Shown in pieces: positions 9,001-11,842 of a stretch of 64,000 nt of DNA. Position numbers: made by a program. Position 1 is the stretch's first letter. Every line of letters begins with the position of its first letter. The stretch lies in assembly GCF_053078305.1 (NCBI RefSeq), contig NZ_CP166879.1; one strand, written 5' to 3'.

Positions 9001-11842
9001 GCGATTGCGCGTCGCGTGCTTTTTGGCTTCCATACTCTCAAATACCAGCGAAGAAGCGCGCTGAATCACGCTATTTACCGCGCCGAGAGTGTATTTTTTG
9101 CTGCGTCCTGCATTCACCAGTTGAGTATCAAGCTTTTTGTCCGCCATGTCGGGATTCCTGTTTTTATACGTCTGGATGTCTAAACTAGCATGAATATTCG
9201 CGGGCGCATCCTGAAGAATTGGCATAAAGCAGAAAATTTTCGCAAATGGCGTGCTGGTGACTTTTTTACTGCGTAAACGCAAGGAAAAGAAAGCAAAGGT
9301 ACGGCAGTATGCAAATAGTAATGAGAACGACTATCAATTCGACGTCGTTTTGATATTATTATGCGCAGATTTTGTGACTTGCGTCCTGGAGATACACAGT
9401 GGGTAATAATTTAATGCAGACGGACCTTTCCGTCTGGGGTATGTATCAGCACGCTGATATTGTCGTTAAGTGCGTGATGATTGGGCTTATTTTGGCCTCC
9501 GTAGTCACTTGGGCAATCTTCTTCAGTAAGAGCGTAGAGTTCTTCAATCAGAAGCGTCGCCTTAAGCGCGAGCAGCAACTGCTGGCTGAAGCGCGTTCCT
9601 TAAACCAGGCCAACGATATCGCCGCTGATTTTGGTAGCAAAAGCTTAAGCCTGCATTTGCTCAATGAAGCGCAGAATGAGCTGGAACTGTCAGAAGGCAG
9701 CGACGATAACGAAGGTATTAAAGAACGTACCAGCTTCCGTCTGGAGCGTCGGGTCGCCGCAGTAGGTCGTCAAATGGGCCGCGGTAACGGCTATCTGGCA
9801 ACCATCGGCGCGATTTCGCCGTTCGTTGGTCTGTTTGGTACGGTCTGGGGCATCATGAACAGCTTTATTGGTATCGCGCAAACGCAGACTACTAACCTGG
9901 CAGTCGTTGCGCCGGGTATCGCAGAAGCTCTGTTAGCAACGGCAATCGGTCTGGTGGCAGCGATTCCGGCGGTCGTTATCTATAACGTATTCGCGCGTCA
10001 GATTGGCGGCTTTAAAGCGATGCTGGGTGATGTCGCAGCGCAGGTATTGTTGCTGCAAAGCCGTGACCTGGATCTGGAAGCCAGCGCCGCTGCGCATCCG
10101 GTTCGTGTCGCACAAAAATTACGTGCAGGATAATGTCCGATGGCAATGCATCTTAACGAAAACCTCGACGATAACGGCGAAATGCATGATATCAACGTGA
10201 CGCCGTTTATCGACGTGATGTTGGTTCTGCTGATTATCTTTATGGTGGCGGCACCGTTAGCGACGGTAGATGTGAAGGTTAACTTGCCTGCTTCTACCAG
10301 CACGCCGCAGCCGCGCCCGGAAAAACCGGTTTATCTGTCGGTGAAGGCAGACAACTCGATGTTTATCGGTAACGATCCGGTCACCGATGAAACAATGATT
10401 ACGGCGTTGAATGCGTTAACCGAAGGTAAGAAAGACACCACCATCTTCTTCCGTGCAGATAAGACCGTCGACTATGAGATGTTGATGAAGGTAATGGATA
10501 AGCTGCATCAGGCGGGTTACCTGAAGATAGGTCTGGTCGGCGAAGAAACCGCCAAAGCGAAGTAAAGTAGAATTGCCTGATGCGCTACGCTCATCAGGCC
10601 TACAAAATCTATTGCAACATGTTGAATCTTCGTGCGTTTGTAGGCCGGATAAGGCGTTCACGCCGCATCCGGCATTAGGTGCTCAATGCCTGATGCGCTA
10701 CGCTTATCAGGCCTACAAAATCTATTGCAACATGTTGAATCTTCATGCGTTTGTAGGCGGATAAGGCGTTTTCGCCACATCAGGTAAGAGTGAATTCACA
10801 ATGATGCCCGGTTGCTTTTCACAACCGGGCATTTTTTTAACCTAAATGCTCGCCGCCGCACACACCGTGCACTTCTGCGGTGACGTAGCTCGACTCCTGA
10901 CTTGCCAGATAAACATATAAAGGGGCCAGTTCCGCCGGTTGCCCCGCACGTTTCATCGGCGTTTGCTGACCAAACTGCGGGATCTTATCCTGCGTTTGTC
11001 CGCCGGAAATTTGTAGTGCCGTCCAGATAGGGCCTGGCGCGACAATATTCACCCGAATACCTTTCTCCGCGACCTGTTTTGCCAGGCCACGGCTGTAGTT
11101 CAGAATCGCCGCCTTCGTAGCCGCATAGTCCAGTAAATGCGGACTTGGCTGGTATGCCTGGATTGACGAAGTGGTGATGATACTTGCACCTTTCGGTAGC
11201 AGGGGGATCGCTTCCTGGGTTAGCCAGAACAGCGCGAAAACGTTAATGGCAAAGGTCTTTTGAAACTGTTCGCTGGTGAGGTCTGCAATATCCGGAATGG
11301 CAACCTGTTTCCCGGCGACCAGCGCCATAATATCCAGCCCGCCTAAGGCCTTATGCGCTTCGTGAACTAGCGAACGGGCAAATTTCTCATCGCTTAAATC
11401 GCCTGGCAGCAGAACGGCTTTGCGTCCGCATTCTTCAATGATCTTTTTCACATCCTGAGCGTCTTCTTCTTCCACGGGAAGATAACTGATCGCCACGTCA
11501 GCCCCTTCACGCGCGTAAGCGATGGCGGCAGCGCGACCGATTCCGGAATCGCCCCCTGTCACCAGGGCTTTACGATCTTTCAGGCGACCGCTACCAACAT
11601 AGGTTTTCTCGCCGCAATCCGGTACCGGTGTCATCTTCGCCTGGATGCCTGGCGTCGGTTGTTTCTGTTTGGGATATTCACCAGTGTAATACTGCGTGGT
11701 CGGGTCTTTTAAATGAGACATCGTTTTTCTCCCTTCAGGTTCAACGTCCTTTAAGGGTAGACGCTCTCGATGCGTTGATAAGGGAACCAGGAAGATCCCT
11801 AACCCTCAGAATTATGCGACAAAGGTTTAACGGATATGTTGA

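Follow-up and report, generated by a model that had tools for sequence, protein, structure and literature searches.

The two adjoining octamers that lie upstream of metC in the window (the whole 64-kb stretch of DNA analysed here) form the already known two-metbox MetJ operator of the E. coli metC promoter, an element of textbook regulation. We are close to certain that the 16-mer is best explained as the minimal natural two-metbox MetJ operator of metC, at which repressor dimers loaded with S-adenosylmethionine (SAM) most likely occlude the promoter. The features that enter the argument are the following, in window coordinates.

7872–7901, minus strand: 3′ end of the metC transcript, with a perfect 9-bp hairpin, CGTCCGGGA-TCAAGGCG-TCCCGGACG (7901–7876), lacking a U-tract; the mapped end is at 7872.
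7960–9147, minus strand: metC coding sequence in the RefSeq annotation, stop codon included, encoding a cystathionine β-lyase of 395 aa.
9148–9173, minus strand: remainder of the 27-nt 5′ UTR, with the Shine–Dalgarno sequence AGGA at 9159–9156, 8 nt before the ATG.
9166–9173, minus strand: metbox 2, AGACGTAT, which matches the consensus AGACGTCT at 7 of 8 positions and scores 9.96 bits with the published matrix.
9174–9181, minus strand: metbox 1, AGACATCC, which matches AGACGTCT at 6 of 8 positions and scores 8.96 bits with the published matrix.
9174, minus strand: metC transcription start site (TSS), the last C of box 1 at the box junction, mapped through the identical K-12 locus to within ±1 nt.
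9182–9190, minus strand: putative extended −10 element TGcTAGTTT (TG at 9190–9189, hexamer TAGTTT at 9187–9182), at −16 to −8 from the TSS.

The window is a segment of an E. coli chromosome. The metC-exbB region is present in 5,422 of the 5,426 complete E. coli genomes, and its 321-bp intergenic segment matches that of K-12 MG1655 at 100% identity and those of 5,398 genomes at 99% or more. Over the metC segment of the window as a whole, no complete E. coli genome exceeds 99.8% identity, whereas the intergenic part reaches 100%; the encoded protein presumably differs from K-12 MetC by a few residues. MetC itself exceeds the cutoffs of the NCBIfam equivalog NF005990 (834 bits, cutoff 634) and of TIGR01324 (565 bits, cutoff 366).

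The two metC boxes are joined without a spacer, 9181–9174 abutting 9173–9166 in register on the minus strand, and the original prediction of two adjoining octamers near the MetJ consensus proved exact in both sequence and coordinates, at the 6/8 and 7/8 matches listed above. No third metbox was found at metC: the in-register flanking 8-mers score negative with the published matrix (−9.43 bits upstream and −8.70 bits downstream), and the array therefore consists of exactly two boxes. The metC ATG occupies 9147–9145 and is separated from metbox 2 by 18 nt. The final operator base is at −19 when counted from the A of the ATG, and the distance of 19 nt upstream of the start that had been given for the operator holds on that count.

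The same element has been published for K-12. Table S1 of Augustus & Spicer 2011 (PMC3228920) lists b3008 metC with two metboxes, a gap of 18, the sequence 'agacatccagacgtat' and a score of 18.92. The 16-mer of the window, its 18-nt gap and its score, which we recomputed, all equal this entry, and the K-12 locus has the same flanking intergenic sequence, with no difference in either the operator or the intergenic DNA. When the comparison with the mapped metC operator that had been suggested as a check was run, the published position corresponded to 9166–9181 of the window; the operator on record is this very site and not one elsewhere.

According to the same study, metC is one of the known E. 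coli MetJ-regulon genes used to train the matrix, at least two adjacent metboxes are required for repression, with one MetJ dimer per box, and MetJ operators typically lie within ~75 bp of the translation start (Augustus & Spicer 2011, PMC3228920). There, the shared metC-exbB intergenic DNA is described as gel-shifted by MetJ, exbB as not being under MetJ regulation in vivo, and Ec.metC as belonging to the lacZ reporter set (Augustus & Spicer 2011, PMC3228920). The site in the window sits where a MetJ operator is expected, upstream of a methionine-pathway gene and overlapping the mapped TSS.

Biochemical work on the operator comes from two chemistry papers. Both use an 18-bp 'F-metC' duplex, to which the term 'the shortest naturally occurring operator' is applied and on which two MetJ dimers assemble. 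The MetJ concentration for half-maximal binding (EC50) is given as 96 nM with 2 mM SAM versus 2900 nM without SAM, and as 17.3 nM in the second study; the text consulted states the length of the duplex, 18 bp, rather than its sequence. A paper that cites Kang 2011 reports metC to be derepressed by metJ mutation in E. coli. The metJ gene lies outside the 64-kb window, and the presence of MetJ in the host is a species-level statement, metJ being found in 5,425 of the 5,426 complete E. coli genomes. Belfaiza et al. are said to have been the first, in 1986, to note a 'Met box' at metC. In a published survey, metJ was present in 122 of 122 non-symbiotic Enterobacteriales (Augustus & Spicer 2011, PMC3228920).

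The mapped TSS places the operator over the core promoter. In the SMRT-Cappable-seq data (Yan et al. 2018, PMC6131387, Supplementary Data 1 and 2), transcription of b3008 starts at one site only, NC_000913.3 position 3,152,209 (121 reads), and the K-12 metC ATG is at 3,152,236. The start at 9174 comes from this one dataset and carries ±1 nt by coordinate convention, and it would be A 9173 instead if the table is offset by one. An entry for a metC TSS is absent from Mendoza-Vargas 2009 and from the examined part of Table S1 of Kim 2012. With respect to this start, the operator spans about −7 to +9, with box 1 at about −7 to +1 and box 2 at about +2 to +9. It had been placed between the promoter and the ribosome-binding site, and this description stands for box 2, which is in the transcribed leader, but not for the operator as a whole, which overlaps the TSS at the box junction and whose box 1 abuts the −10 hexamer.

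From its sequence, we infer that TGcTAGTTT, which adjoins box 1 and ends 7 nt ahead of the mapped TSS, is the extended −10 of the metC promoter. No recognizable −35 element was found, the hexamer at 17-bp spacing being GATGCG. A generic −35/−10 scan of 9100–9420 found no promoter, because the metC promoter lacks a plausible −35.

Two other hexamers were considered as the −10 and rejected. TATAAA (9169–9164) would start transcription inside the Shine–Dalgarno sequence, conflicts with the mapped TSS and is GTTAAA in Salmonella, and TATTCA (9196–9191) sits at −22 to −17 from the TSS.

The proposed course of repression is as follows. When methionine is plentiful, SAM is plentiful as well, and SAM-loaded MetJ homodimers bind, one per 8-bp box, with the two dimers binding AGACATCC and AGACGTAT cooperatively. 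RNA polymerase has to contact and open the same DNA that the bound MetJ occupies, and initiation would be blocked by promoter occlusion. As SAM falls, the affinity of MetJ decreases about 30-fold, polymerase would gain access to the promoter and cystathionine β-lyase would be made. The footprint of the σ70 holoenzyme extends from about −55 to +20 in the open complex. Given this footprint and an operator that covers the TSS and abuts the −10, promoter occlusion is the best-supported mechanism, and repression most likely proceeds in this way, although the case for occlusion over interference at some later step comes from the geometry.

Such a later block would follow if the operator were located downstream of the promoter, in the leader, where MetJ would act as a roadblock to polymerase that has already initiated or would prevent promoter escape. 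Box 2, at +2 to +9, is indeed within the initial transcribed region, but the TSS falls at the box junction, box 1 covers −7 to +1 and abuts the −10 hexamer, and the open complex must contact operator DNA given the extent of the holoenzyme footprint. We consider a downstream block very unlikely and retain promoter occlusion by MetJ as the preferred reading.

The strength of the site was assessed over the entire window. The doubled consensus, with at most three mismatches allowed, matches only the metC site in 64 kb, with 0.10 matches expected, although this test is weak alone, at least one match having been obtained in 10 of 100 shuffles. An independent weight matrix was derived from 27 K-12 metboxes of eight other operators, with metC left out. 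With this matrix, the operator scores 18.55 bits and ranks first among 63,985 positions, the runner-up scoring 12.06, and 18.55 bits was attained in none of 100 Markov-1 simulated windows. Under the published rule (Augustus & Spicer), a box has to reach at least one quarter of the consensus score and an array at least the consensus score, 12.58 bits. The published matrix gives 8.96 + 9.96 = 18.92 bits for metC, which is the sole site in the 64-kb window to pass the two-box rule; 18.92 bits was attained in 7 of 500 permuted windows. The scan for MetJ sites that had been proposed as a check thus returned the metC octamers with both matrices, and no alternative MetJ site passes the published rule in the metC-exbB intergenic region or in the whole 64 kb.

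Conservation was analyzed in 80 Enterobacteriaceae species, represented by one genome each and chosen by MetC protein similarity alone (82–98% MetC identity). The two-box site is present in all 80 and precedes the ATG by 16–22 nt, with the exception of L064, for which the start codon was only guessed. Averaged over columns, conservation reaches 0.89 in box 1 and 0.99 in box 2, compared with 0.78 for the leader and 0.57 for far-upstream intergenic DNA. Box 1 reads AGACGTCC in 26 species, AGACATCC in 23, GGACGTCC in 18, GGACATCC in 12 and AGCCATCC in one; this variation is almost confined to A/G changes at positions 1 and 5, each of which is tolerated by the published matrix. For box 2, 74 of the 80 species have AGACGTAT. 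The motif TGnTAnnnT abuts box 1 in 79 species, with the TG fixed and the n between TG and TA being G in 37, C in 18, T in 15 and A in 9, and AGG is found 6 nt past box 2 in 70.

Within E. coli, the most divergent allele (94.1% identity over the 321 bp) carries no change in TGCTAGTTT, in either box or in the leader as far as the end of the ribosome-binding site, and its substitutions cluster just upstream of this unchanged stretch. The published survey recorded metC metboxes for 81 of 119 Enterobacteriales and for none of the Vibrionales or Pasteurellales (Augustus & Spicer 2011, PMC3228920), and conservation of the site is therefore a family-level rather than a regulon-wide property.

The 16-mer overlaps core promoter positions that are possibly constrained on their own, and it could have been conserved as discriminator, start and initial transcribed sequence, with the likeness to metboxes being incidental and MetJ acting elsewhere or indirectly. 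Several lines of evidence make this reading highly improbable. MetJ binds metC operator DNA directly and in a SAM-dependent manner, and gel-shifts the intergenic region; a matrix from which metC was left out gives the site the highest score in the window; the 80 species differ largely by changes that a metbox matrix accepts, A/G at positions 1 and 5 of a box; and neither the intergenic region nor the 64 kb contains another site that passes the rule. There is hardly any likelihood that the repeat works in the mRNA, controlling translation or stability from the metC 5′ UTR through its structure or a bound protein. Box 2 does enter the transcript, with 6 nt between it and the Shine–Dalgarno sequence, but the transcript includes only about half of the repeat. 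No RNA structure was detected in the 45-nt 5′ end of the mRNA, whose folding energy of −3.1 kcal/mol (z = +0.48) was equalled or bettered by 130 of 200 shuffles.

Repression of metC by MetJ and SAM through the two octamers, as put forward in the original prediction, is thus borne out: the identical 16-mer with a gap of 18 is published as the K-12 metC operator, and the matrix scans and the conservation in 80 of 80 species agree with it.

Farther upstream, an A4T4 block, AAAATTTT, is located on the minus strand at 9240–9233, about −66 to −59 from the metC TSS, inside GAAAATTTTC at 9232–9241. The block is about 90% conserved in the 80 Enterobacteriaceae species, with its flanks at 30–50%, and the strict form AAA(A/T)TTT occurs in 45 of the 80 at a fixed 57–59 nt from box 1. 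We tentatively suggest, as a possibility to which we give well under an even chance, that the metC promoter, having no −35, relies on the extended −10 together with the A4T4 block, which might act as an undescribed UP-like or curved-DNA element or as an activator site and set basal expression. If this is true, the two-box MetJ operator would be half of a compact, incompletely described control region.

The divergent exbB gene has TSSs at 9317 of the window (K-12 3,152,066) and at 9367, which are 136 and 186 bp from the operator edge, and this distance fits the published absence of MetJ control of exbB. On the plus strand at 9317–9335, upstream of exbB (GTG at 9399), the sequence AGTAATGAGAACGACTATC begins at the upstream exbB TSS and shares 13 of its 19 bases with the Fur-box consensus GATAATGATAATCATTATC, a match that is weak alone, as the window has 19 positions with a score of at least 13/19. 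The exbBD genes are under Fur control, and the match at 9317–9335 fits this. The PGAP name for the exbB product in most of the listed E. coli genomes is 'tol-pal system-associated acyl-CoA thioesterase', versus 'Ton complex subunit ExbB' in the K-12 record; the PGAP name looks like a propagated error.

At the other end of metC, the hairpin lies 4 nt before the 3′ end mapped by SMRT-Cappable-seq, a 'novel TTS' at which 30 of 121 reads end, with 49 reading through to yghB. The same 9-bp hairpin is seen in Salmonella metC deletion primers. Beyond the metC locus, a plus-strand ORF of 375 aa at 5994–7121 occupies the place where K-12 annotates the 318-aa AraC-type activator YqhC, the extra length comes from an in-frame ATG farther upstream and is an artefact of ORF listing.

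The metC operator has been in the literature for decades and has served as a model minimal operator in MetJ biophysics, so that it carries little weight as a discovery. Its value is that of a positive control, a real 16-bp regulatory site recognized from sequence alone. The geometry (an operator at about −7 to +9, a conserved putative extended −10 and no −35) may help annotation and the engineering of methionine over-producers. The operator covers the discriminator and the start site, and edits made in the boxes to deregulate metC would therefore also edit both.

Among K-12 operators, longer MetJ arrays resemble that of metC in having tandem, unspaced 8-bp boxes, close to AGACGTCT in sequence, at the promoters of methionine genes. 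They differ in the number of boxes, which is four at metA, metB/metJ, metF and mmuP and three at metN, metK and metE/metR, whereas metC has the minimum of two, common in K-12 only to ybdH/mtnE. The score per box is comparatively high at metC, 9.46 bits versus 5–8 bits in the three- and four-box operators.

In Salmonella enterica, the region upstream of metC, as read from deletion-primer sequences, keeps TATATTCATGCTAGTTT AGACATCC AGACG..., including TGcTAGTTT and box 1. The primers read TGCTAGTTT AGACATCC AGACGGTT, and box 2 is accordingly AGACGGTT, compared with AGACGTAT in E. coli. By hand calculation with the published matrix, the Salmonella box 2 scores 7.63 bits and the array 16.59, which still passes the published rule.

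Outside the methionine regulon, the ribbon-helix-helix repressors Arc, Mnt and CopG bind short tandem or inverted sub-sites through a β-ribbon in the major groove. Their operators, like that of metC, involve cooperative dimer–dimer contacts and overlap with core promoter elements. MetJ differs from these repressors in protein subfamily and motif, and it also requires SAM as a co-repressor.
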